Source of the DNA: Escherichia coli
GTDB lineage: Bacteria > Pseudomonadota > Gammaproteobacteria > Enterobacterales > Enterobacteriaceae
DNA length: 64,000 bases
Strand: one strand, 5' to 3'
NCBI RefSeq assembly: GCF_003019035.1
Contig: NZ_CP027447.1
The stretch's first letter is position 1; every line of letters starts with the position of its first letter. The translations under genes and the position numbers were made by a program. Positions 1,982-44,782 of the stretch are shown here, piece after piece. The notes under the pieces were generated by a model, which did not search any database, was not told where the DNA came from, and worked only from the letters and a program-made list of their open reading frames with translations.

Positions 1982-3640
<1,659 letters not shown>

Positions 3641-3845
3641 TTACTTTTAGTCGCTTTATTGCAGGTGAGATTTGCGCGGCATCAACGGTAACACTTAAGT
3701 AACAACATTTAAATAATGTTTATAAATTATATTCTAATTTTAGAAACATTATAATTTCGTTGATTAATTATAGGGTTATTAGAAATGAAGGGATTTTTAG
3801 AATATTGACCTGGCGGCAGCAGTCCGCCAGGTCAGCGTCGAAATA

Positions 3846-5489
3846 TTATGCCGTCCGGGCAACGGCATCACGCGAAGCAGCATCGCGCTCTTCGCCTGTC
3901 AGCTCGCTAAGTTGCCCGTTGCGCATTTCCAGCAGGCGGTCAGCGTGGATAAAGTAATGATCATCATGACTGATGGCGAAAATCGTTTTACCCATCTCCT
4001 GCATCAGCGGTAGCAGCACCTGATAAAACTCACGGCGGAAGTGTGGGTCCTGATCCGCCGCCCATTCATCCAGCAGGATAATATCGCGTTCTTCTGCCAG
4101 CGCCAGCAACAGCGCGACGCGTTTTTTCTGCCCTTTTGATAACTTCAGGTTAACAATACGCCCGTTACTTAACTCAAGCTTATGAGCCATTTTCAGCTGC
4201 GCCAGCCACTTCTCAACCAGTTGCGGGTTAGCGGGTTGCCCCTCCGGCCCCAGCAGTTGATCAAACAGCCAGACATCGGTAAACACTGCCGAAAACAGTT
4301 TGCGATAATCTTCCGGTTGTTCGCCGCTGACAGGTTTGCCATCCAGCAAGATTTCGCCGCTTTGTGGCTGATACAAGCCCGTCAGCAACATCGCCAGCGT
4401 CGATTTTCCGCTACCGTTGCCACCAATCAGAAACAGCAGTTCGCCACGTTTGATGGTGAGGTTAATCGGCCCAACGGAAAACGCGTTATCCTGATAAGCA
4501 AACGTCACGTTACGCAGCTCCAGCGTTTGCCAGTTGGGAAACGCCTGCGGGCGCGGAAACTCTGCTTTGAAAGGCGCGAGCGCGAATTTGTTCAGCTTGT
4601 TAAACGCCACCTGCGCCGTCAGCAGCGTCGGCAATGCGCCAACTGCCGAAAGCAGCGGCGTACGCAGGAATAACAGCGTCAACGAATAGGTCGCGGCAAC
4701 GTTGGTATCAGCCCAACCGAGACTGTTCGCCATCCAGAACACCAGGCCGATAGCGCCCAGCATCATGATGTTTGACCAGTTCACGGCACTAAGATGGAAG
4801 GTGTCTGCGCGGATAATATGATGGCGATACTCTTGCGCATCAGGAATGTAGAGGTTGTTAAACACATACTCGGCGCGTTCCCGGTTCAGAGTCAGCTCTT
4901 TGCGCCCTTCGAGTACGGTTTGAAAATCCGTGTACAGCTTATCTTCGGTTTCACGCAGGGTCGCCATATGTTTGTACACCCGCGCCACCAGCACAAAACC
5001 GCCCCAGATGGTGACTGCCATCCAGATAGCCGTTACCAGCAACATTTTGCCCGACAGCATCCACAAATACGCCGCGGAACCGATAGTGAGAATGATCCCC
5101 TGCACCAGTTCCGGCAGACGCACAAAAGCAATGGTGATATTGCGCACATCGCTGGTTAACCCCGCCAGCAACGAAGCGCTACCAAGTTGTTCAATGCGCT
5201 CGACGTGGGTATCCAGAATCCGCTTGATAAATTCACTACGCAGTCGGTAAACGAAGTGATGCCCCAAAGTGGTGAGCGCCAGTTGCGATCCGAGAGTGAC
5301 TGCCATCAACAGCAACAATAATCCCAGAAACTCCGGCAACACCAGCAGACTGGTATCCGCCGTTTCGATAAGGCGCTGATTGATAAAAGCAATTAAGCCA
5401 ATGCCTAATGCCGCACTGGCGAGGCTTAGCGCCATCACACTGATAAATGGCCAGCGATACTGCCGCCAGACAAGTACAAGAAGTTCCAT
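3846..5489 (-). CDS. yojI: ABC transporter (fused permease/ATPase), microcin J25 efflux type
   Basis: 547-aa ORF; N-terminal TM domain, C-terminal Walker [10 protein letters not shown] and Walker [12 protein letters not shown]. Confidence 0.9.
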
Positions 5490-6215: not shown

Positions 6216-7279
6216 TACCTTTCCTCATTTTCAGCTTCGCGGCGCAGCAGTTGCGCTTTGCGCGACACGCCCCAGCGGTAACCGGAAAGTGTGCCATCAC
6301 CACGGACCACCCGATGACAGGGTATTATGATAGCCAGCTTGTTGGCGGCACAGGCACTGGCAACGGCCCGTACCGCTTTCGGTTTGCCGATGGCATTAGC
6401 CAGTTGCTGATAACTGACGGTTTCACCGCAAGGTATCGTGCGCAGGGCCTGCCAGACTTGTTGCTGAAAAGCAGTGCCGCGAATGTCCAGCGGTAACGTC
6501 AGCGGCGTATCGCGTTGATTGAGGCTGGCGATCACTTCACGCACATGTTGCTGAAACGTAAGATCAGCAGGCGCGCTGTCGGCAGCGGGAAACATCTGCT
6601 GCAACTCGCTGATTAATGTCGCGTCATCATCGCCCAGCAATATCGCGCAAATCCCCCGCTCGCTTTCTGCCACCAGGCAACGACCCAGCTCACAATCAGC
6701 CAGCGCGTAACGCACCGCCAGATTTTCGCCACCGTGACGGAATTGTTTAGCCGTCATGCCCAGCGTTTCGTCGGCTTTGCGGTAGTAACTGCTGCTGTCG
6801 GGGAATCCGGCGTTAAGAATAGATGTAGTCACGCTCTCCCCTTTCGCCAGCAATTCGCGCAAACGGCGAGCGCGCCAGGCCTGTTGCCAGGCTTTAGGCG
6901 TCATTCCGGTAGTCGCTTTAAACAACCGATGCAAATGAAATGGACTCATCGCCACCTGGTCGGCTAAGGCTTCCAGCGTTACAGGCGTTTCCTGTTCCAG
7001 AAGTCGGCAGGCGTGGGTAATTTTATCAAGGCGATGTTGCTGGGCATTGGCTTTGTCTGGCTGACAACGTTTGCAGGGGCGAAATCCGGCGGCGAGTGCC
7101 TCGCTGGCATTTGCGTAGAAGGAGACATTTTCCCGCAAGGCATGTCTGGCGCGGCAAGACGGACGGCAAAAGATACCTGTGGTGCGCACGGCGAAAACGA
7201 ATTCGCCGTCGGCATTCGGGTCGCGGGCTAAGACAGATTGCCAGCGTTGATCGTCTGTTAAGCATGTGGCGTTTTTCAT
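6215..7279 (-). CDS. ada: Ada, bifunctional methyltransferase / transcriptional activator
   Basis: 354-aa ORF with N-terminal Cys-rich FCRPSCRAR and C-terminal PCHRV active-site motif. Confidence 0.95.
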   Translation of the reverse strand: MKNATCLTDDQRWQSVLARDPNADGEFVFAVRTTGIFCRPSCRARHALRENVSFYANASEALAAGFRPCKRCQPDKANAQQHRLDKITHACRLLEQETPVTLEALADQVAMSPFHLHRLFKATTGMTPKAWQQAWRARRLRELLAKGESVTTSILNAGFPDSSSYYRKADETLGMTAKQFRHGGENLAVRYALADCELGRCLVAESERGICAILLGDDDATLISELQQMFPAADSAPADLTFQQHVREVIASLNQRDTPLTLPLDIRGTAFQQQVWQALRTIPCGETVSYQQLANAIGKPKAVRAVASACAANKLAIIIPCHRVVRGDGTLSGYRWGVSRKAQLLRREAENEER

Positions 7280-33543: not shown

Positions 33544-36171
33544 TTATTCTTCTTCTGGCTCGTCGTCAACGTCCACTTCCGGAGCGATTTCATCGTCCCC
33601 TTCCGCGGCACTGCCGTCGATGGTATCCAGATCTTCCTCGTCAACCGGTTCAGCAACACGTTGCAGACCCACTACGTTTTCATCTTCCGCAGTACGGATG
33701 AGGATCACACCCTGGGTGTTACGGCCCACGATGCTGATTTCTGAAACGCGAGTACGTACCAGCGTACCGGCATCGGTGATCATCATGATCTGGTCGCAGT
33801 CATCTACCTGCACTGCGCCAACCACTAAACCGTTACGTTCGGTAACCTTGATGGAAATAACCCCTTTCGTCGCACGCGACTTGGTTGGGTATTCCGCCAC
33901 TGCGGTACGTTTACCATAACCGTTCTGCGTTGCGGTGAGGATTGCGCCATCACCACGAGGTACGATCAGAGAGACGACTTTATCGCCTTCGCCTAAACGA
34001 ATACCGCGAACACCGGTGGTGTTGCAGCCCATCGCACGGACAGAAGACTCTTTAAAGCGCACCACTTTACCTTCAGCGGAGAACAGCATTACTTCATCTT
34101 CGCCACTGGTCAGGTCAACGCCGATCAGCTCATCGCCTTCAACCAGTTTGATCGCCACTTTACCGGCAGTACGCAGACGGTTGAATTCGGTGAGGACGGT
34201 TTTCTTCACAGTTCCGTTAGCGGTCGCCATGAAGACTTTCACGCCTTCTTCAAACTCGGTCACTGGCAGGATCGCAGTGATACGTTCGTCTTGCTCCAGC
34301 GGCAGCAGGTTGACGATCGGACGACCGCGCGCGCCACGAGTAGCTTCTGGCAACTGGTAGACCTTCATCGAATAGACGCGACCACGGCTGGAGAAGCACA
34401 GAATATGGTCGTGGGTATTCGCCACCAGCAGTCGGTCGATAAAGTCTTCTTCTTTAATACGTGCGGCAGATTTACCTTTACCGCCACGACGCTGCGCTTC
34501 GTATTCAGAAAGCGGCTGATACTTCACGTAGCCCTGGTGAGAGAGCGTCACGACCACATCTTCCTGGGTGATCAGATCTTCCAGGTTGATGTCTGCGCTG
34601 TTGGCGGTGATTTCAGTACGACGTTTGTCACCGAACTGTTCACGAACCAGCTCCAGCTCTTCGCGGATCACTTCCATCAGACGATCGGCGCTACCAAGAA
34701 TACGCAACAGTTCCGCGATCTGATCCAGCAGCTCTTTGTATTCGTCGAGCAGTTTTTCGTGCTCAAGGCCGGTCAGTTTCTGCAGACGCAGATCCAGAAT
34801 CGCCTGAGCTTGCTGTTCGGTCAGGTAGTACAGACCATCGCGCACGCCGAACTCTGGCTCCAGCCATTCCGGACGCGCAGCATCGTCGCCAGCACGTTCC
34901 AGCATCGCGGCAACGTTGCCCAGCTGCCACGGATTAGCAACCAGCGCGGTTTTCGCTTCTGCAGGCGTCGGCGCATGACGGATCAGTTCGATGATCGGGT
35001 CAATGTTCGCCAGCGCCACGGCTAATGCTTCAAGGATATGAGCACGATCGCGAGCTTTACGCAGTTCGAAAATAGTACGACGGGTCACCACTTCACGGCG
35101 GTGACGAACAAACGCCGCGATGATGTCTTTCAGGTTCATGATCTTCGGCTGACCATGGTGCAATGCCACCATGTTAATACCGAAAGAAACCTGCAACTGG
35201 GTCTGGGAGTAGAGGTTGTTGAGCACCACTTCACCGACCGCATCGCGTTTCACTTCAATCACGATGCGCATACCGTCTTTGTCAGACTCGTCACGCAGCG
35301 CGCTGATACCTTCCACGCGTTTTTCTTTTACCAGTTCCGCAATCTTCTCGATCAGGCGCGCTTTGTTCACCTGATACGGAATTTCATGGACGATAATGGT
35401 TTCACGTCCGGTTTTGGCGTCAACTTCCACTTCAGCACGGGCGCGGATATATACCTTGCCGCGACCGGTACGGTAAGCTTCTTCAATACCGCGACGACCA
35501 TTAATGATTGCCGCCGTCGGGAAGTCCGGCCCAGGAATGTGTTCCATCAGCCCTTCAATGCTGATGTCTTCATCATCGATATACGCCAGACAACCGTTGA
35601 TAACTTCCGTCAGGTTGTGCGGCGGGATGTTGGTTGCCATACCTACGGCGATACCGGAGGAACCGTTCACCAGCAGGTTAGGAATTTTGGTTGGCATGAC
35701 GTCCGGAATTTTTTCCGTGCCGTCATAGTTATCAACGAAATCGACCGTCTCTTTTTCGAGATCGGCCATCAGTTCATGGGCAATTTTCGCCAGACGGATT
35801 TCCGTATAACGCATTGCCGCCGCAGAGTCGCCGTCGATGGAACCGAAGTTACCCTGACCGTCTACCAGCATGTAACGCAGCGAGAATGGCTGCGCCATAC
35901 GGACGATCGTGTCATAAACCGCCGAGTCACCATGGGGATGGTATTTACCGATTACGTCACCAACGACACGGGCAGATTTTTTATAGGCTTTGTTCCAGTC
36001 ATTGCCTAGTACGTTCATGGCGTAAAGTACGCGACGGTGTACCGGCTTCAGGCCATCTCGGACATCCGGCAGCGCACGGCCAACAATGACCGACATCGCA
36101 TAATCCAGATAGGAGCTCTTCAGCTCTTCCTCAATGTTGACCGGTGTAATTTCTCTCGCAAGGTCGCTCAT
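33544..36171 (-). CDS. gyrA: DNA gyrase subunit A
   Basis: 875-aa [50 protein letters not shown]...; QRDR reads [10 protein letters not shown] (Ser83 = TCG at 35925..35923, Asp87 = GAC at 35913..35911). Confidence 0.97.
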
Positions 36172-36215
36172 CTAACCGCTATCCCTCTACTGTATCCCGG
36201 ATTCAAAGGTCGGAG

Positions 36216-36221
36216 ATTATA
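36216..36221 (-). promoter_or_regulatory. Candidate gyrA -10 hexamer (TATAAT)
   Basis: Minus strand reads TATAAT about 45 bp upstream of the gyrA ATG; no mapped transcription start. Confidence 0.4.
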
Positions 36222-36429
36222 ACACAATCGCTTGCGGACGGGTAAACGTAATGCAGGCTTCCGGGCGCTGTAGATCTACTGCGTTTTACCCCACCGCCAG
36301 CACACATCGCGCTGGCGGTGAACGACAAAGGAACAAAGACCGCAACACGCTTCCTGTGCCTCAATAAACACCAGAAATAATGGCTATACTCGTCATACTT
36401 CAAGTTGCATGTGCTGCGTCTGCGGGTTA

Positions 36430-36598
36430 TTCGGCCCATCCATGGGCCTCACCCCTTACGGGGCCGCTGCAAGCAGCGTTCAAATCCGCTCCATGCGGAT
36501 TTGTCGCTCACCCCAGTCACTTACTTATGTAAGCTCCTTGGGATTCACTCGCTTGTCGCCTTCCTGCAACTCGAATTATTTAGAGTATATAAATCGCC
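36430..36598. repeat. ERIC-like (enterobacterial repetitive intergenic consensus) element
   Basis: Core at 36505..36548 is the reverse complement of GTGAATCCCaAGGAGCTTACATAAGTAAGTGACTGGGGTGAGCG, the conserved ERIC central inverted repeat; outer boundaries approximate. Confidence 0.7.
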
Positions 36599-36599
36599 G

Positions 36600-37802
36600 T
36601 TATTTGATCACATAGGCAAGATATTGTTGTACGATTTCATCGTTTAATTCCTGACCAAGCCCAGGCAACTCTGGCGCGACATAATAGCCATTCTCGGGTT
36701 GATAATCGTAAGTACAAAGTTCCCGAATACATGCTTTCATCGCATTGGTATGATGTTCATGAATAATAAAGTTAGGTATTGCAGTTTCCATATGCAGCGC
36801 CGCTACTGTTGAAACAGGCCCGCCACAAACATGTACCTGAACGGTTGTGTCATATATATTGGCATAATCACAAATTTTCTTTCCCTCTGTAATGCCACCA
36901 CAAAGACACAAATCAGGTTGAGCTACCGCAATTGATTGTTTTTCCAGTAAATCACGATATCCCCAGCGAGTATAAGAACGCTCACCTGTTGCTATCGGAA
37001 TCGATGTTGAACGGGCAACTTTCTGCATATTATCCGAATTTAATGGATGAATTGGCTCCTCATAGAGAAAAATACGATATTTCTCTATTGCTTTGGCAAA
37101 CTGGATCGCTGAATTTGTTCCTAGAAGAGAATGAATCTCTACAATAATATCAGCATCGTCGCCCATTGCTTCACGCATAGCGGCAATTCTTGTCTCGCCC
37201 ATTTTTAATTGTTCGGCCAGTAATAAGCCAGAGTAATTTCTATTTTTGTTCTGAAAGACACAATCGCCGCCATGCAGATCGATTTCAAGCGGATCAACTT
37301 TTATCGCATTATAACCTTCTGCAATAGCGGCACGCGCTGCCTCTGCATACTCTTCAGGCGTTACTAATATTTGCCTTTTTTCGCCCCAACCAAATTGTAA
37401 CTGACTGGCGTAAGTTCTCAATTTATCGTTAGTCTTTCCCCCCAGTAGTTGATAAACCGGCACGTTTAAATATTTACCTTTAATATCCCATAAGGCAATA
37501 TCAATAGCGCTCATACCTGCGTAAAAAACATTACCACCGCCCATTCCCCAAAATGTTTTCCTGAAGAGGAATTCCCAAATCTTCTCAATGTTCAACGGAT
37601 CTTCACCAATGATGAGAGGGGCTAAATCTCTGATAATACCAACACCAGATTTTGCACCTGCGCCATAGGCTAATCCTACTTCGCCAACACCACTTATTCC
37701 AGCATCGGTATTAACCCGAATAAGTACTGGATTATAAGAGGCCATAGTTTGATCTCTTTTTTTGAGTTCGCAGTCAAAAATTTCTACAGATGTAATCTTC
37801 AT
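36600..37802 (-). CDS. Enolase-superfamily dehydratase (mandelate racemase / galactonate dehydratase-like); substrate unknown
   Basis: 400 aa from the ATG at 37802 (GAGG Shine-Dalgarno 7 nt upstream; ORF track starts at 37814). Motifs ALWDIKGK, QLLGG, EEP, ATGER, QPDL, GGITE shared with DgoD/RhmD-type enzymes. Confidence 0.8.
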   Translation of the reverse strand: MKITSVEIFDCELKKRDQTMASYNPVLIRVNTDAGISGVGEVGLAYGAGAKSGVGIIRDLAPLIIGEDPLNIEKIWEFLFRKTFWGMGGGNVFYAGMSAIDIALWDIKGKYLNVPVYQLLGGKTNDKLRTYASQLQFGWGEKRQILVTPEEYAEAARAAIAEGYNAIKVDPLEIDLHGGDCVFQNKNRNYSGLLLAEQLKMGETRIAAMREAMGDDADIIVEIHSLLGTNSAIQFAKAIEKYRIFLYEEPIHPLNSDNMQKVARSTSIPIATGERSYTRWGYRDLLEKQSIAVAQPDLCLCGGITEGKKICDYANIYDTTVQVHVCGGPVSTVAALHMETAIPNFIIHEHHTNAMKACIRELCTYDYQPENGYYVAPELPGLGQELNDEIVQQYLAYVIK

Positions 37803-37814
37803 AAATAACCTCAT

Positions 37815-39143
37815 TTATTTAGCATGTGAAATAACATTGTCTTTCTGGGCGTTATCTTTTTTATTATCAATTTTCATTGATAACAAAATAGCTACGGCGA
37901 TAAAGCAAAGAATCGCCTCAACAATAAATATCCCCGTGGCTCCATAATGTGTAGAAACATAGCCAAGTGATTTATTGATCAGAAAACCACCCAAACTTGA
38001 ACAAGAGTTAATAAACGCAATACTGATTGCCAGGCCTGATGGTGAAAGTAAAGCTGAGGGTAAAGCCCAGTACGGACCGTAATAACTGAGAATGCCTACA
38101 CCGTATAATGTTAATCCCATCATGCGCAGCGTCATCGAAGGTACAAGTGCGATCATTAAAAAACCGCAACCTGCAACCAACATCGGTAGTGCGGCATGCC
38201 ATTTCCTTTCATTCTTTTTATCGGAATGCCATCCCCATAATGGCATACTGAACATCGCGAAAATAAACGGAATACTCATAATCAAACCGACATCGGTATC
38301 TGTGAAATCCGATGAAAATCCTTTAACCAACCCCGGTAACCAGTAATTTGCCGCCAACGCCGCTGCCTGAATAAACATATAAGCAAATGAGAGTTGTAGT
38401 AATACTGGATTTTTAATGATTGACAGAAAAGATGCATTTGTATTTTTATTTAATGCTGCGGCTTTTTCGTTATCAGAATTAAGTTTATCGACCAATGCGG
38501 TGACTTGCGATGGTGTAAGCCAGCGGGCTTTTTCCGGACGATCTGGCAGTAAATAAAAGGTCAGCGCCCCCAATAACACCGTAGGAATGCCTTCAATAGC
38601 AAAAAGCCAGCGCCATCCTTCATAGTTACCGGTATTCATATGTTCAATAATCCAACCAGACATTGGTGCCGCCAGCACAGATGCAACTGCGATTGATAAC
38701 ATAAAAAAGCTATTCACTTTTCCACGTTCACGCGCCGGGAACCAACATGCCAGGTAGTAAACCATGCCAGGGAAAAAACCCGCTTCAAATATTCCCAAAA
38801 AGACCCGAGCGAGCAATATATGCTGGGTGTCTTTGGCAAAGAAAATTAACGTTGTTACTGTTCCCCAACCAACAATAATGGCGCTAATCCATTTTCTTGC
38901 ACCTAACTTTTGCAATCCAATACTGCTCGGAATTTGAAAAATCAAATAGGACACAAAAAATATTGAAGATATATTAGCAAAATCCTCTGGAGTAATACCA
39001 AGGGATTCATTCATGCGTAAAGCGGCAAATCCGATGTTAACACGATCCATATAGTTAAAAAAATACAGAATAAATGCTAACGGAATAATCTTCCTTTTCA
39101 CAATAGAAATGGCGTCATACAAATCTTTCTGAGGACTGCTCAT
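37815..39143 (-). CDS. MFS transporter, anion:cation symporter family (sugar-acid type)
   Basis: 442-aa polytopic ORF; conserved DRxNIGFA and GIFEAGFFPG motifs as in RhmT/DgoT-type transporters; AAGGTG Shine-Dalgarno; 12-bp gap to the dehydratase gene. Confidence 0.8.
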   Translation of the reverse strand: MSSPQKDLYDAISIVKRKIIPLAFILYFFNYMDRVNIGFAALRMNESLGITPEDFANISSIFFVSYLIFQIPSSIGLQKLGARKWISAIIVGWGTVTTLIFFAKDTQHILLARVFLGIFEAGFFPGMVYYLACWFPARERGKVNSFFMLSIAVASVLAAPMSGWIIEHMNTGNYEGWRWLFAIEGIPTVLLGALTFYLLPDRPEKARWLTPSQVTALVDKLNSDNEKAAALNKNTNASFLSIIKNPVLLQLSFAYMFIQAAALAANYWLPGLVKGFSSDFTDTDVGLIMSIPFIFAMFSMPLWGWHSDKKNERKWHAALPMLVAGCGFLMIALVPSMTLRMMGLTLYGVGILSYYGPYWALPSALLSPSGLAISIAFINSCSSLGGFLINKSLGYVSTHYGATGIFIVEAILCFIAVAILLSMKIDNKKDNAQKDNVISHAK

Positions 39144-39380
39144 TTTGTTTCACCTTTTGTGCTTCAATGAATAAGAGTACTGCCCGAAGTGGATATTACG
39201 TAAAAAATAATCCAGTTCAAAAGGTGATGTGTTATATCTGATATATCAGCTTGATCATTGATTGAAACACTAAGCTACAACAATAAGATATATCATTTTT
39301 GTCATATCTGATATATTAGACACCTTCATTGATAAAATGATTACATATAATGGACCAGCAGCTTAATAAGGGGCAAAGGA

Positions 39381-40079
39381 ATGAGAGATAAAGCGAAACG
39401 TGACTTAAGTCACATATCAATTGAGATACCAAAATCCGTAACACAGGTCATCAAAGAAAAAATCAGGGATATGATAATTCATGGCGATCTCAGTCTTGGG
39501 CAACCGATAAGTGAAAATGAACTTTCGAATATCCTGGCGGTAAGTAAAACACCTATTCGTGAAGCTTTTATTTTACTTAGTCACAATGAAAATCTGATCA
39601 ATATCATTCCACGCAGCGGAACATTCGTTTTTTCCGTAACAGATAAAGATATTAATGACCTCATAAAAATGCGAGTAATTCTGGAGCAGGGTGCAATTCG
39701 TGAAGCAATGGAAAAGAATGAAAACAATGTCATCATTGAATTAAGTAGCATACTATCAAAATCAGCAAAAATTAATGCCGAGCGTGATACTCAGGCTTAT
39801 CTTAAATTGGATCATGATTTTCATTATGTGTTTGTTAAATACGCTGCTAATAAATACATCTCTCAGGCACACCAATTGATATCCGCACGTTTACTTGCTA
39901 TTCGTTATCGACTGGATTTCACTACGGAATATATTACCAATTCAAATCGTGGCCATGCCACTATTTTAGATATGCTAAAAAATAATAACGTTGAAGGTGT
40001 TTGTAATTTTATTACTCATCACGTAAGTAGTGGATTTACCGAGCGTGCACGAAAAATTCTCTCGTTATCTACACAGTAA
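39381..40079 (+). CDS. GntR-family transcriptional regulator (FadR/FCD-type C-terminal domain)
   Basis: 232-aa ORF; N-terminal winged HTH (ENELSNILAVSKTPIREAF); divergent from the MFS-dehydratase pair; AAGGGG Shine-Dalgarno 7 nt upstream. Confidence 0.8.
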   Translation: MRDKAKRDLSHISIEIPKSVTQVIKEKIRDMIIHGDLSLGQPISENELSNILAVSKTPIREAFILLSHNENLINIIPRSGTFVFSVTDKDINDLIKMRVILEQGAIREAMEKNENNVIIELSSILSKSAKINAERDTQAYLKLDHDFHYVFVKYAANKYISQAHQLISARLLAIRYRLDFTTEYITNSNRGHATILDMLKNNNVEGVCNFITHHVSSGFTERARKILSLSTQ

Positions 40080-40156
40080 AATGTGAATGAGTTTATAACA
40101 CTGGCACTTTTCACCTGCTATACTGCCCGACAACCTTTATAGACTCTTATGTAACA

Positions 40157-40879
40157 ATGAACACTGAAAATCTCCTTAAAAACAATAACGTAGACCACGA
40201 AGAGATCGCTAAATTTGAAGCCGTCGCCTCCCGCTGGTGGGATCTTGAAGGTGAGTTCAAACCGCTGCACCGCATTAACCCGCTGCGTCTGGGCTATATT
40301 GCCGAGCGTGCTGGCGGTTTATTTGGCAAAAAGGTGCTCGATGTCGGTTGTGGCGGCGGCATTCTGGCCGAGAGTATGGCGCGCGAAGGCGCGACGGTGA
40401 CCGGTCTGGATATGGGCTTTGAGCCATTGCAGGTGGCAAAGTTGCACGCGCTGGAAAGTGGCATTCAGGTAGAGTACGTGCAGGAAACCGTGGAAGAGCA
40501 CGCGGCAAAACATGCCGGGCAGTATGACGTGGTGACCTGCATGGAGATGCTGGAGCACGTGCCCGATCCGCAGTCAGTGGTCAGAGCCTGTGCGCAACTG
40601 GTGAAACCGGGCGGCGATGTCTTTTTCTCGACGCTTAACCGCAACGGCAAGTCATGGCTGATGGCGGTAGTCGGCGCAGAATATATTTTGCGCATGGTGC
40701 CTAAAGGTACACATGATGTGAAGAAGTTTATTAAACCGGCAGAATTGCTGGGCTGGGTGGATCAGACAAGCCTTAAAGAGCGGCATATGACTGGGCTGCA
40801 TTACAACCCGATCACTAATTCCTTTAAGCTCGGCCCCGGCGTGGATGTGAACTATATGCTGCATACGCAGAATAAGTGA
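40157..40879 (+). CDS. ubiG: UbiG, ubiquinone biosynthesis O-methyltransferase
   Basis: 240-aa ORF with SAM-binding [13 protein letters not shown] motif; N-terminus [16 protein letters not shown] differs from the recalled K-12 N-terminus, the rest is near-identical. Confidence 0.93.
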
Positions 40880-41017: not shown

Positions 41018-44000
41018 TTACCATTTCACTGTCATCGACAAAAACCCTGCCGTCTGGGCAAAATCATCACTCCCTTTCTGCCACGCCACGCTACCACGCA
41101 GCGAAACTCGCTGACTGATATTGCCCGTTATTCCCACTTTTATTTCACCCCGTTGCTTCACCGCATCGTCACTGATAGTGCTGCCATCTTCTTCAATTTC
41201 CGTCGCATGGGGATCGTGATAATAATTCAGATCTAATGTTGGTATGACACCAACCGCGGTACGCCATTCGCTGTGTAAACCCAGCCGCGTTTGAATATCA
41301 TCACCCTGCGATTGTGACACCCGCGCATGGTTAGCAGCGGTGAAATCATCCTGCTGCACGCCCTGATAAATCACCTGCGCCTGTGGTTCAATCACCACTC
41401 CATGCCCCGGTAACCACTGATACCCGGCTTCCAGCGAGGCGATAATCCCCGATGAGTGGTAATGATCCGCGCCATCTTCATGTTCGGAAACATCATTGTT
41501 AAACCACGCGTATTGCAGCCAGCTATCCAGCCAGGCCCCCTGCTTCTGATTACCGTGCTGGAACCAGCTTGAGGTCAGACCAACGGCATAACCGTGGTTC
41601 TGGTTATCGGCGCGAGTTCCGGTCATATTCGAGCGGCTGTCGCCCTGGTTATCACTGTAGCCACCAACCGCCCCAAGCATCCACTCGCCATCCATGCCCC
41701 AGCGCCCGCTAAACAAGTCGCCGCTAAGCTGCACCGTAGAAGTGTCTTCATGCTGAGCCAGTTGCCCCGCTGCTGTGTAATGATAATCTCCGCCGATAAC
41801 ACGTAAATTCAGCGTCTGACCATCGCCACCAGCGTGATCGCGTCGCTCCATCACAAATGCCTGATTTGCCGCACGTAGGTTATTGAGATAGCCACCAACT
41901 TTGGCATTCAGCACCGGCTGGTAGGCAGGCGTAGGGGCTGGAGCCGGGTCGGGTGTTGGATCAGGATCCGGCGTAGGATCAGGATCTGGAGTCGGGTCTG
42001 GATCGGGCGGCGATGGTGGCGTTACTTCTTGCGATCGCAGATACCAGTCGTTGTTATCTTCCACCAGCGTGTAGTCATACGCTCCCATATTGACGTAGCC
42101 GCTGCCCGCCAGACTGAACTGCGCATTGTTTTGAAATTGCGTTGGATCGGCTGCGAAATCAACCACTTTAATGCCCGTAGATGTCGGCTCACCAATACCC
42201 GTAATGGGATTAATTACCACGGTCGTGTTGCCAGCAGTATTACCGTTCAACACCAGTTGGTCGCTTGCCGAGTCATCGCCGTTTAATTCGCTGTCGAGAA
42301 ACAACGTACCGCCACCGGTGTAATCACCGTTTACCGTGAGCGTGTCGCCAGCAACGCCATTTTGCAGACTGACAGCACCGGAAGTATTAGTTAGATCACC
42401 ATTGACCGTCACGTCTGAAAGATAAGTCAGGCTGTCAGTTTCAAGGTTGGTATTAAGCTCGCCTGTCAGCGTCACACCATCGGTGGCATTCACCAACGTA
42501 CCGTCGCCGCTAAACAGCGAGGCATCCAGCGCCTGGTTCGTATCCTGCTGCGTCAATCGCAACACAGTACCATCGGTTATGTCGATATCGCCGCCAGAGG
42601 TGGCATCGATTGAACGAATATCCTGATTTTGCCCGGTTTCAAAAACACCGTCTTCCCCCACCCACAGTGAAGAAACATAAGGAATAATATTCTCCGCTTC
42701 ACCTTTTAGCGTTCCGTCCTCCACACGTACCGCAGACGTCGCAGTGCCGCTGGCGGTCAACTCCAGCGTCCCGCCGCCACTTTTAGTCAACGTGCTTACG
42801 CTATCCAGTTGTTGCCCGGTACTATCCGCCATCAACCCGCCCCATTGCGTATCTACGCCATCCTCAACGTGTATTTCGCCATCAGCGCGCATTTCAATAT
42901 TCCTGCCCTGACCTGTTGTAGCCGAGCGAGTGTCAACATCAGTCGTCACATCCATTTCACTGTGTTGTTGGGGATCTGTGAAGATCACTGAACGGTTGTA
43001 ACTTGTGTCCCCCAATTGCGAATTATCGCTGACTTCAAGCGTACCGGAGGCGATTTGCGTATTACCGAGATAACCGTTGTTATTCGCCAGCGTTACGCGC
43101 TGATCCCCCGCATTAATGACGACATAAACGCCATTCTGGCTGGCATCACTGCCGCCAATATGTAAATCATCGCCACTGCTGATATCAACGACATCATTAC
43201 TACCAATCACTGTCCCCCCGCTGCCGCTGATTTGCAGACCGTCATTGTATGAGCTATCGCCATCCCAGGTGGTGAAATCAGAGAGATCCAATACTCCGCC
43301 ATTTAGCACGATCGATTGCGGATCGCTCTGCATTGCCCGTAAATCGGCCTGATTCCCCGCCAGCGACAATACGGCGTTATCTTCCACCACAATATCGCCG
43401 GTTAATGCCATCGACTGCGCCCCTGTCAGGAGATAGCTGCCATCTTGCGCTACCGTCAACTGTCCTTCACCCTGAATCGAGCCGGAAAAACCGCCCTGGT
43501 TTACGGTAACATTGCCGCCTGCGTCGATATTCAAAATGCCATTAGCAAAACCGGTTAATGAGTGCACAAACGTTTGTTGTGTATTGCCAACATTCAGTTC
43601 TGCCTGATACTCAGAATGAACAGTGCTGCCGACCATCAGACCAAAGCAATCCTGCGGATCGCTCTGACAGTGCGTGTCGCCGACATTCATTAACTCATCG
43701 CTGCGCCCCAACGTCACCTCGCCATTCTGGATACTCATCTCGCCGGTAAACGCATTATTGTCGGCATTGAGGACTAACTCTCCCGCTCCCTCTTTAACGA
43801 TGACTCCCGTTCCGGCAAGAGAATCAATCGCGCCATCGTTGCTGGTATTGCCTATTACCAGCGTTTTATCGGCGGCAATGTTAAATTCAGCCACACTATG
43901 ACCGATATACATAAAGCCCCCCGCCGCTGCCGTCGCCGAATGGTCATATCCCGAGGCGCTGTTATTTTCATCAATCATCACACCATTGTTTTGGTCATAA

Positions 44001-44782
44001 TTATCATCAACAGAAATATCAATAAGATACGGGGATGTGGTGCTGCTGGTATAAATTGCTCCGCCATAACCTTCTGCATAGTTATTGGTAAAGGAGGTAT
44101 TATTAATTATCGTTTTTCCTGAAAGATGTGTGTTATCCGTACTATTATCCGTAACATCAATGGCACCGCCGTCCCCATCACTATAGCTGGTTGATGTATA
44201 TGCCTGATTATTATCAAAAATGACATCACTTAAATAAATATCATTATTGATAGAATAAATAGCGCCACCTTTACCATCATTGGCGATATTATTCGCAAAT
44301 ATTGCATTAGTGATATTTAAATCCATATCACCGGCATCGTTTGTTCCCGCAGAATAGATTGCTCCGCCATAGCCTCCTGCAACGTTACTGTCGAAAATAA
44401 CATTCGCAAGATTTATCATTGAGTTTTCTTTAGCAAAGATAGCTCCGCCATTATTATATTCGCCACTAATCGAGTTATTAGCAAACAGGGTCATCCCTGT
44501 TTCATTTTGTGGTGATATCGTAAATTCAGCACTTTGCTGCAAAAATACGGCGCCACCGCTGGCATTATTGGCCATACCCGAAAAAATCACCCATTGCCCA
44601 TCGGCGATGCTCCAGTCCTGCGTAATGCCTGAAAGGCTTTGCCTGCTGGCCTGACAACTCGCTTTGATATCATATCCCTGGCATGAATCCAAAACCTCCG
44701 CGACACTGTTAACAGAGAAAAGAGATGCAATCATTGACGGGAGTAAAGATAAATACTCCTTGCGTAGAAAAATAATCCGCAT
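41018..44782 (-). CDS. yfaL: YfaL-type autotransporter adhesin (type Va secretion)
   Basis: 1254-aa ORF; N-terminal signal, Gly/Asn/Thr-rich passenger repeats, proline-rich PPSPPDPDPTPDPDPTPDPDPTPDPAPAPTP linker, C-terminal beta-barrel ending ...MTVKW. Confidence 0.88.
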   Translation of the reverse strand: MRIIFLRKEYLSLLPSMIASLFSVNSVAEVLDSCQGYDIKASCQASRQSLSGITQDWSIADGQWVIFSGMANNASGGAVFLQQSAEFTISPQNETGMTLFANNSISGEYNNGGAIFAKENSMINLANVIFDSNVAGGYGGAIYSAGTNDAGDMDLNITNAIFANNIANDGKGGAIYSINNDIYLSDVIFDNNQAYTSTSYSDGDGGAIDVTDNSTDNTHLSGKTIINNTSFTNNYAEGYGGAIYTSSTTSPYLIDISVDDNYDQNNGVMIDENNSASGYDHSATAAAGGFMYIGHSVAEFNIAADKTLVIGNTSNDGAIDSLAGTGVIVKEGAGELVLNADNNAFTGEMSIQNGEVTLGRSDELMNVGDTHCQSDPQDCFGLMVGSTVHSEYQAELNVGNTQQTFVHSLTGFANGILNIDAGGNVTVNQGGFSGSIQGEGQLTVAQDGSYLLTGAQSMALTGDIVVEDNAVLSLAGNQADLRAMQSDPQSIVLNGGVLDLSDFTTWDGDSSYNDGLQISGSGGTVIGSNDVVDISSGDDLHIGGSDASQNGVYVVINAGDQRVTLANNNGYLGNTQIASGTLEVSDNSQLGDTSYNRSVIFTDPQQHSEMDVTTDVDTRSATTGQGRNIEMRADGEIHVEDGVDTQWGGLMADSTGQQLDSVSTLTKSGGGTLELTASGTATSAVRVEDGTLKGEAENIIPYVSSLWVGEDGVFETGQNQDIRSIDATSGGDIDITDGTVLRLTQQDTNQALDASLFSGDGTLVNATDGVTLTGELNTNLETDSLTYLSDVTVNGDLTNTSGAVSLQNGVAGDTLTVNGDYTGGGTLFLDSELNGDDSASDQLVLNGNTAGNTTVVINPITGIGEPTSTGIKVVDFAADPTQFQNNAQFSLAGSGYVNMGAYDYTLVEDNNDWYLRSQEVTPPSPPDPDPTPDPDPTPDPDPTPDPAPAPTPAYQPVLNAKVGGYLNNLRAANQAFVMERRDHAGGDGQTLNLRVIGGDYHYTAAGQLAQHEDTSTVQLSGDLFSGRWGMDGEWMLGAVGGYSDNQGDSRSNMTGTRADNQNHGYAVGLTSSWFQHGNQKQGAWLDSWLQYAWFNNDVSEHEDGADHYHSSGIIASLEAGYQWLPGHGVVIEPQAQVIYQGVQQDDFTAANHARVSQSQGDDIQTRLGLHSEWRTAVGVIPTLDLNYYHDPHATEIEEDGSTISDDAVKQRGEIKVGITGNISQRVSLRGSVAWQKGSDDFAQTAGFLSMTVKW
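41930..42012. repeat. Short imperfect tandem DNA repeat inside yfaL encoding the (D/P)(P/T) linker
   Basis: Repeated ggatc(a/c/t)gg(a/c)gt(a/c/g)gg-type units visible across about 80 bp. Confidence 0.7.

Follow-up and report, generated by a model that had tools for sequence, protein, structure and literature searches.

The unusual ubiG start beside a gyrA-ubiG islet in Escherichia coli is very probably the homologous 5' end of an islet-bearing haplotype

The window, a stretch of 64,000 nucleotides of an Escherichia coli chromosome, has the order gyrA, AT-rich interval, ubiG and yfaL, and its ubiG gene begins with codons that differ from those of K-12. This odd start reflects ordinary natural variation, affecting a protein tail that is predicted to be disordered and the presumed promoter, and the gene was not disrupted by an insertion. 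Very probably, the variant codons are the ubiG 5' end that belongs to an islet-bearing haplotype of the gyrA-ubiG interval. The cargo of this haplotype comprises 3.85 kb and three genes, encoding a dehydratase, an MFS transporter and a GntR regulator (Table 1). The odd N-terminal codons would represent the right-hand end of an alternative haplotype in which the cassette lies inside the ancestral ubiG promoter, and the -10 element, the leader and ubiG codons 1-8/10 would be the haplotype's own ubiG 5' region, diverged yet homologous.

Table 1. Coordinates of the features of the gyrA-ubiG locus in the window
Feature	Position	Strand	Basis or remark
gyrA	33544..36171	-	left flank of the locus; ORF list, RefSeq annotation
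Left-hand block of the islet haplotype, gyrA promoter discriminator to -35	36213..36261	-	K-12/Salmonella alignment
AT-rich cargo (GC content about 40%) that interrupts the ancestral spacer of gyrA and ubiG	36262..40113		left edge approximate; composition, alignments
ERIC element in the cargo	about 36386-36596
Enolase-superfamily dehydratase, cargo gene	36600..37814	-	ORF, RefSeq annotation
MFS transporter, cargo gene	37815..39143	-	ORF, RefSeq annotation
GntR/FCD regulator, cargo gene	39381..40079	+	ORF, RefSeq annotation
GntR 3' stretch encoding DMLKNNNVE	39970..39994	+	20/25 identical to ubiG 40170..40194 (NLLKNNNVD)
Putative promoter core and leader of ubiG in the islet haplotype	40114..40156	+	conservation of TGnTATACT
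Putative extended -10 of ubiG	TG 40116-40117, TATACT 40119-40124	+	conservation, scanner match
Mini start-stop ORF ATGTAA in the ubiG leader	40149-40154	+
ubiG CDS, 240 aa, intact	40157..40879	+	ORF list; RefSeq annotates ubiG in the identical strain SCU-301
Variant ubiG codons 1-10	40157..40184	+	alignments to K-12 and Salmonella
yfaL	41018..44782	-	ORF list

The original prediction had stated that the N-terminal codons of UbiG are unlike those of K-12. This was borne out, and the K-12 start on which it relied was correct: UbiG of K-12 MG1655 (locus L001; also PDB 4KDC) begins MNAEKSPVNHNVDHEE, whereas the UbiG of the window begins otherwise. Pairwise alignment to the MG1655 ubiG 5' region revealed 12 mismatches within the first 28 nt of the gene (40162, 40163, 40165, 40171-40174, 40176-40179 and 40184), followed by a single difference from 40185 to 40440. 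Identity to K-12 holds up to 36212 and again from 40185, with strong divergence between these positions. The variant block itself is composite. Nucleotides 1-14 of ubiG are those of Salmonella ubiG (14/14), nucleotides 15-24 (AAT CTC CTT AAA, codons 5-8) are unlike both K-12 and Salmonella, and nucleotides 25-28 are K-12-like apart from C>A at 40184. The ubiG gene of the window is thus a mosaic, in which codons 1-10 are variant, nucleotides 29-284 are K-12-like and the remainder is about 6% diverged from K-12. The 3' two-thirds of the gene (40441..40879) are unusually diverse in E. coli, most genomes being 93.6-96% identical to the window in this part.

Of the 5426 complete E. coli genomes searched, 142 (2.6%) had the variant ubiG 5' block. 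Recovery of the same 28-nt block in so many genomes showed that the variant start is not a sequencing artefact; among seven sampled carriers the block was invariant, apart from one SNP in GF131. An insertion at the gyrA-ubiG site splits the variant block in 141 of the 142 genomes, 140 of which hold at least 80% of the islet, and WB61 is the sole genome with the variant block and without the islet. Conversely, no islet beside a K-12-type ubiG start was found among the 5426 complete genomes. The carriers include IAI39 and CE10, early-branching reference strains of phylogroup F. Within E. coli, the islet copies differ from the window copy by 1.5-2.7%. In megablast searches, alignments of K-12-type genomes began at window position 40179-40180 and did not match across the variant block; in a minority class (e.g., INSC1002) the alignment reached back to 40155 at 96% identity. 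The carriers have at least three downstream ubiG haplotypes and differing gyrA flanks, together with one common block edge at ubiG nucleotide 28, which indicates recombination in the flanks. We infer that such recombination with ordinary E. coli alleles would reach ubiG nucleotides 25-29 and would be unable to cross a block that is only about 50% alike. The diverged ubiG 3' haplotype of the window was found at 99% identity or more in 45 genomes, and 45 islet carriers matched 40000-40879 at this level, so that this 3' haplotype appears to be confined to carriers.

Outside E. coli, searches with a degenerate nucleotide pattern that covers the variant start of UbiG gave no match in 100,044 species representatives and only two contigs, both from E. 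coli, in metagenomes; the exact variant N-terminus was on record for no other species in either collection. A protein search with the first 47 UbiG residues returned short fragments only, with the variants MNTDNLL.. and MNTENIL.., and no donor.

The edges of the cargo were located by two comparisons, of islet-free genera with Salmonella and of WB61 with the window. The gyrA-ubiG spacers of the islet-free Kosakonia, Atlantibacter and two further Enterobacteriaceae (including locus L018) were compared with that of K-12 and found to be colinear with it, sharing TGTTATAAT (the gyrA -10), GGTAAAC, GCTTTATTC, (G)CCTGATATACT, GGAGTA and ATGAATGCC. Being common to the islet-free genera, the K-12-type spacer is ancestral. 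In the Salmonella enterica locus L020, assigned to this organism by exact protein matches (Q8ZNH1_SALTY and Q8ZNG9_SALTY), the gene order is rcsC-gyrA-dehydratase-MFS-GntR-ubiG-nrdAB with the cassette in the same order and orientation as in the window, and here the cassette sits between GCTTTATTC and CCTGCTATACT. These comparisons place the right edge of the window cargo at about 40113/40114, 43 bp before the ubiG ATG. If TGnTATACT is the extended -10 of ubiG, as its conservation suggests, the cassette would lie inside the ubiG promoter, between GCTTTATTC and the -10.

WB61 (locus L004, 5990..6003) differs by a deletion of 3842 bp, corresponding to window positions 36273..40114, with no microhomology at the junction; its ubiG-side junction is at most 1 nt from the cargo edge. 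Its spacer measures 143 bp, compared with 146 bp in K-12. An ancestral empty site in WB61 was ruled out, as Salmonella shares the islet arrangement and the WB61 block is 100% identical to that of islet-bearing copies. Because of this shared arrangement, the identical flanks and about 11 nt of the left end of the islet (CGGGCGCTGTA) that WB61 still holds, the strain has most plausibly lost the cassette by a secondary deletion.

The 70-bp stretch 40114-40184 is part of the islet-bearing haplotype and retains the layout of a ubiG 5' region. TGnTATACT is found 32 nt before the ATG, as against 34 nt in K-12, the start codon is kept, and ten residues precede the invariant NVD as in K-12 (NVDHEE). 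The variant also fits MNxE[KN], the pattern of the family in a set of about 120 UbiG clusters. The window has CACCTGCTATACTGCCC and ATGAACACTGAAAA in common with Salmonella, where ubiG starts ATGAACACTGAAAA as well and the TGCTATACTGCCC box is likewise shared; beyond this point Salmonella UbiG continues with the K-12-like KPSVAH and the window UbiG with NLLKNN. The leader of the variant is 60% identical to that of Salmonella and 46% identical to that of K-12, and the gyrA-side block (36213..36256) matches Salmonella at 35 of 44 positions and K-12 at 24 of 44. Moreover, BLAST aligned window 36601..40300 with L020 3443..7144 at 79% in one piece, which begins in the dehydratase gene, spans the spacer between GntR and ubiG and ends within ubiG.

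The insertion breakpoint had originally been predicted to lie within the first 10 or so codons of ubiG, with the 5' end, promoter and ribosome-binding site of the gene replaced by islet DNA. In that case, unrelated islet DNA would by chance have supplied a promoter, a ribosome-binding site, a start codon and an N-terminus. Typical E. coli sequence does resume only at ubiG nucleotides 25-29, the 70 bp upstream are as low in GC as the islet, and the -35 region, the leader and the ribosome-binding region do differ from those of K-12. These 70 bp are nevertheless homologous to ubiG 5' regions in the distance of TGnTATACT, the start, the 10-residue length and MNxE, and the first 14 nt are those of the Salmonella ubiG start. 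An insertion within the coding sequence would have left cargo abutting the retained gene with a non-homologous 5' end, whereas both comparisons place the cargo edge upstream of the ATG. The junction in the first codons is therefore a junction between alleles and the replacement is itself a homologous ubiG 5' region, which makes an insertion inside codons 1-10 most improbable. The Salmonella-type ubiG 5' end was not found beside the cassette at three other loci examined.

Codons 5-8 stand out within the homologous 5' end. These 10 nt match K-12 and Salmonella at only one or two positions each, whereas the neighbouring bases match one or the other, so that simple orthologous divergence is not a full explanation. 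The ubiG stretch 40170..40194 is identical at 20 of 25 positions to a GntR stretch that has the same orientation and lies upstream at a distance of exactly 200 bp (P about 3e-4 under a Markov null and 7e-4 under a codon shuffle, for a 25-nt frame chosen post hoc), and the equivalent K-12 and Salmonella sequences reach only the background of 15/25. In addition to the haplotype, a short patch templated by GntR might accordingly have rewritten codons 5-10, through ectopic micro-conversion or a template switch; the anomalous codons between matching bases would fit such an event. After correction for about 50 frames, however, P rises to roughly 0.01-0.03. Moreover, ten bases of the match belong to native ubiG sequence and agree by chance, five mismatches are left, AT-rich genes often encode runs of Asn and Lys, and the UbiG tail is hypervariable anyway. 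Such a patch thus appears doubtful, although it would leave the assignment of the block to the islet-bearing haplotype in place. Two compensating frameshifts within codons 5-10 (-1 in GAAAAA and +1 in TAAAC, placed by eye) were rejected, as this route needs two indels and five substitutions, passes through TAA and is no better than plain substitution.

Regarding the haplotype's own ubiG 5' region, its expression context may be altered. TGnTATACT is conserved in K-12, Kosakonia, Atlantibacter, L018, Salmonella and the window. In K-12, GCTTTATTC lies directly upstream of the -10 and GGAG lies 11 nt before the ATG; GCTTTATTC is presumed to be the -35 region of the ancestral ubiG promoter. In the window, a simple sigma-70 scanner reported ATAACA-18-TATACT with the TG, where ATAACA comes from the cassette end and the ancestral GCTTTATTC box is gone. 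As the same scanner found no site in K-12, Salmonella or WB61, the evidence for the putative ubiG promoter is conservation. The GGAG box is conserved in five islet-free genera, reads GGAA in Salmonella and is absent from the window. The ubiG leader of the window is 32 nt long, and leader plus first codons are predicted to fold at -0.8 kcal/mol, compared with -7.4 kcal/mol for the more structured K-12 leader. No terminator-like site was found between the GntR stop and ubiG, so that read-through from GntR into ubiG is possible. In carriers, ubiG would be transcribed from the TGCTATACT box or by GntR read-through. The consequences of the variant are therefore likely to be regulatory, as judged from these elements: a new, cassette-supplied -35 region, loss of the presumed ribosome-binding GGAG, and an A/U-rich, unstructured leader. 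Nothing relevant was found in the literature on the mapping of the ubiG promoter or on the spacer between gyrA and ubiG.

The gyrA promoter (36213..36240, minus strand) is affected too. Mismatches to K-12 begin with 36213 and 36215; two bases of the discriminator differ, which reads CTCC rather than TTGC just downstream of TATAAT. GTTTACC and the extended -10 TGTTATAAT are kept at 19-nt spacing in the islet haplotype, and the spacer between -10 and -35 is wholly different.

In both islet-bearing species, a conserved upstream ATG precedes the ubiG start by 8 nt. It forms ATGTAA in the E. coli window, and in Salmonella (L020 about 6990..7001) it opens an ORF of 3 codons, ATG TAC TCA TGA, with its stop overlapping the ubiG ATG (ATGA). 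The GGAA box of Salmonella is spaced for this upstream ATG.

UbiG of the window was compared with solved and modelled structures. It aligned with PDB 4KDC over residues 1-240 (phmmer, E=1.5e-158), i.e., over its full length, and is 96% identical to K-12 UbiG overall, with three further substitutions outside the N-terminal block. The SAM-binding motif DVGCGGG and the membrane-binding insertion 165-187, whose role has been described (PMC4796655), are present and identical to K-12, and the core of the methyltransferase as a whole matches K-12 exactly or almost exactly. Residues 3-10 are hypervariable between genera, and the length of the N-terminal decapeptide is constant across about 120 clusters. 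The N-terminal 9 residues were untraceable in the UbiG crystal, a count that may include tag residues (PMC4796655). In an AlphaFold model of the variant, calculated from a shallow alignment of 26 sequences and scoring low in two internal segments too, residues 1-9 had pLDDT <50. According to this model, residues 3-10 probably form a disordered tail outside the methyltransferase fold, and enzyme function would be kept as a consequence. Because the ORF is intact in the 142 genomes, seven of which were read over their full ubiG, and the tail is hypervariable in any case, we infer that altered UbiG enzyme function is unlikely. The gene had been termed essential, which is too strong. UbiG is required for ubiquinone synthesis and respiratory growth, yet ubiG is not strictly essential.

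The content of the islet varies among carriers. The ERIC/IRU repeat (about 36386..36596), in the left part of the islet, has the two classical primer sites of ERIC elements. It is absent from 2014C-3061, has the standard size in MS 21-1, GF131 and LR-28, carries one internal insertion in the window and two in strain 165, and has left a remnant at the corresponding place in Salmonella. An E. coli-like, islet-bearing metagenome contig (OGRO01003671.1; L005 1..3912) has two extra AT-rich ORFs left of the dehydratase, which replace the ERIC region. They encode 588 aa and 683 aa, the latter with what looks, by eye, like a phospholipase-D-like nuclease domain followed by helicase motifs. As these ORFs resemble defence-type cargo, the content of the site is variable. 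In MS 21-1 (L012 6371..10035 and 3167..4494), RefSeq marks an internal stop in yfaL and a frameshift in the islet MFS gene, and this annotation suggests cassette decay in some lineages. In all E. coli carriers examined, RefSeq also labels GntR (39337..40079) a pseudogene, "frameshifted". The ORF of 232 aa is intact, however: 229 of its residues align with positions 64-292 of Salmonella GntR, which has 294 aa, and Salmonella has annotated versions of 231 aa too. The pseudogene label is thus probably an annotation artefact arising from an overlong reference start.

The Salmonella enterica locus is the ortholog of the islet-bearing locus, being alike in the three genes, their order and orientation, the flanking genes and the low GC. 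Its cassette proteins, encoded by STM2273-STM2275, are 92, 89 and 88.6% identical to those of the window. It differs from the E. coli variant in that it keeps GCTTTATTC on the gyrA side and the GGAA remnant of the ribosome-binding box, both of which the variant lacks. The locus is apparently common in Salmonella: the UniRef cluster of its GntR bears the label n=142 Tax=Salmonella, and at least 1000 contigs encode exactly this protein, compared with 2.6% of complete genomes that have the locus in E. coli. The Salmonella dehydratase has been solved (PDB 2GL5 and 4E6M, deposited as "putative dehydratase").

At the nucleotide level, the window and Salmonella are 82.4% identical in the dehydratase, 78.7% in the MFS transporter and 79.5% in GntR, compared with 79.2% in ubiG and 85.7% in gyrA. 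The cassette is thus as far from that of Salmonella as the core genes are, and recent transfer from S. enterica is excluded. No donor or sister lineage other than Salmonella, whose DNA is only 79-82% identical, was found. Dehydratase homologs outside Salmonella were detected in L007 (87%), Budvicia (78%) and L009 (74%), each with the same three-gene module at an unrelated locus; no ubiG-like flank lies beside the module in any of them, so that they were uninformative as a guide to the ubiG 5' end. A peptide scan of genome contigs for GntR revealed no relative, a result that is unreliable because Salmonella GntR (88.6% identical) itself contains two of the eight-residue query peptides (DHDFHYVF and DMLKNNNV).

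Candidate sources of the islet are import from an unsampled lineage that has the locus, or very old vertical inheritance. Under the latter, the haplotype was never imported and has persisted in E. coli since the common ancestor with Salmonella, as an old polymorphism beside the islet-free type. The divergence of the islet genes, equal to that of ubiG and gyrA, would fit this history, and so would the 1.5-2.7% differences between islet copies, similar to species-wide core diversity, and the presence of IAI39 and CE10 among the carriers. On the other hand, the ancestral K-12-type spacer is not derivable from the variant by deletion, so that both types would have had to coexist roughly since the genus arose, and the carriers amount to just 2.6% of genomes. 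Taken together, an exclusively vertical history seems unlikely. A joint reading, in which a polymorphism as old as the Escherichia-Salmonella split was kept in both versions in E. coli and codons 5-8 were in addition templated from GntR, is rather more doubtful. If it were true, the old polymorphism would consist of two kept versions that differ in the promoters of two important genes.

Whatever its source, the islet-bearing haplotype belongs to a known type of variation. Horizontal regulatory switching is said to have been treated by Oren et al. in 2014. Divergent "switched" intergenic regions between conserved genes are an established concept (Thorpe et al., 2018, Piggy; PMC5890482). The locus shares with such regions two highly divergent sequences at one place between conserved genes, and by analogy an effect on expression of the downstream gene would be expected. 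gyrA and ubiG flank both alleles, which align only in the shared flanks, and identity to K-12 in the left block (24/44) and in the leader (46%) is below the 90% used by Piggy. Unlike in a pure spacer switch, the divergent sequence enters the coding sequence by 28 nt and alters 7 residues, both divergent promoters (gyrA and ubiG) are affected, and the switch is tied to the 3.85-kb cassette. The variant is thus a switched intergenic allele of a known class, here tied to a cassette and extending 28 nt into the CDS.

As a caution, a core gene with a seemingly replaced 5' end can carry a homologous allele of an islet-linked haplotype. The islet also corresponds, in E. coli, to a Salmonella locus that has been well sampled and whose "putative dehydratase" has been solved. 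Within a single species, the two alleles offer naturally paired control regions of ubiG (and of gyrA), one with a conserved putative -35 box and GGAG, the other split by the cassette and without GGAG, and this pair may be used to ask what weight these elements carry in expression of the ubiquinone pathway.
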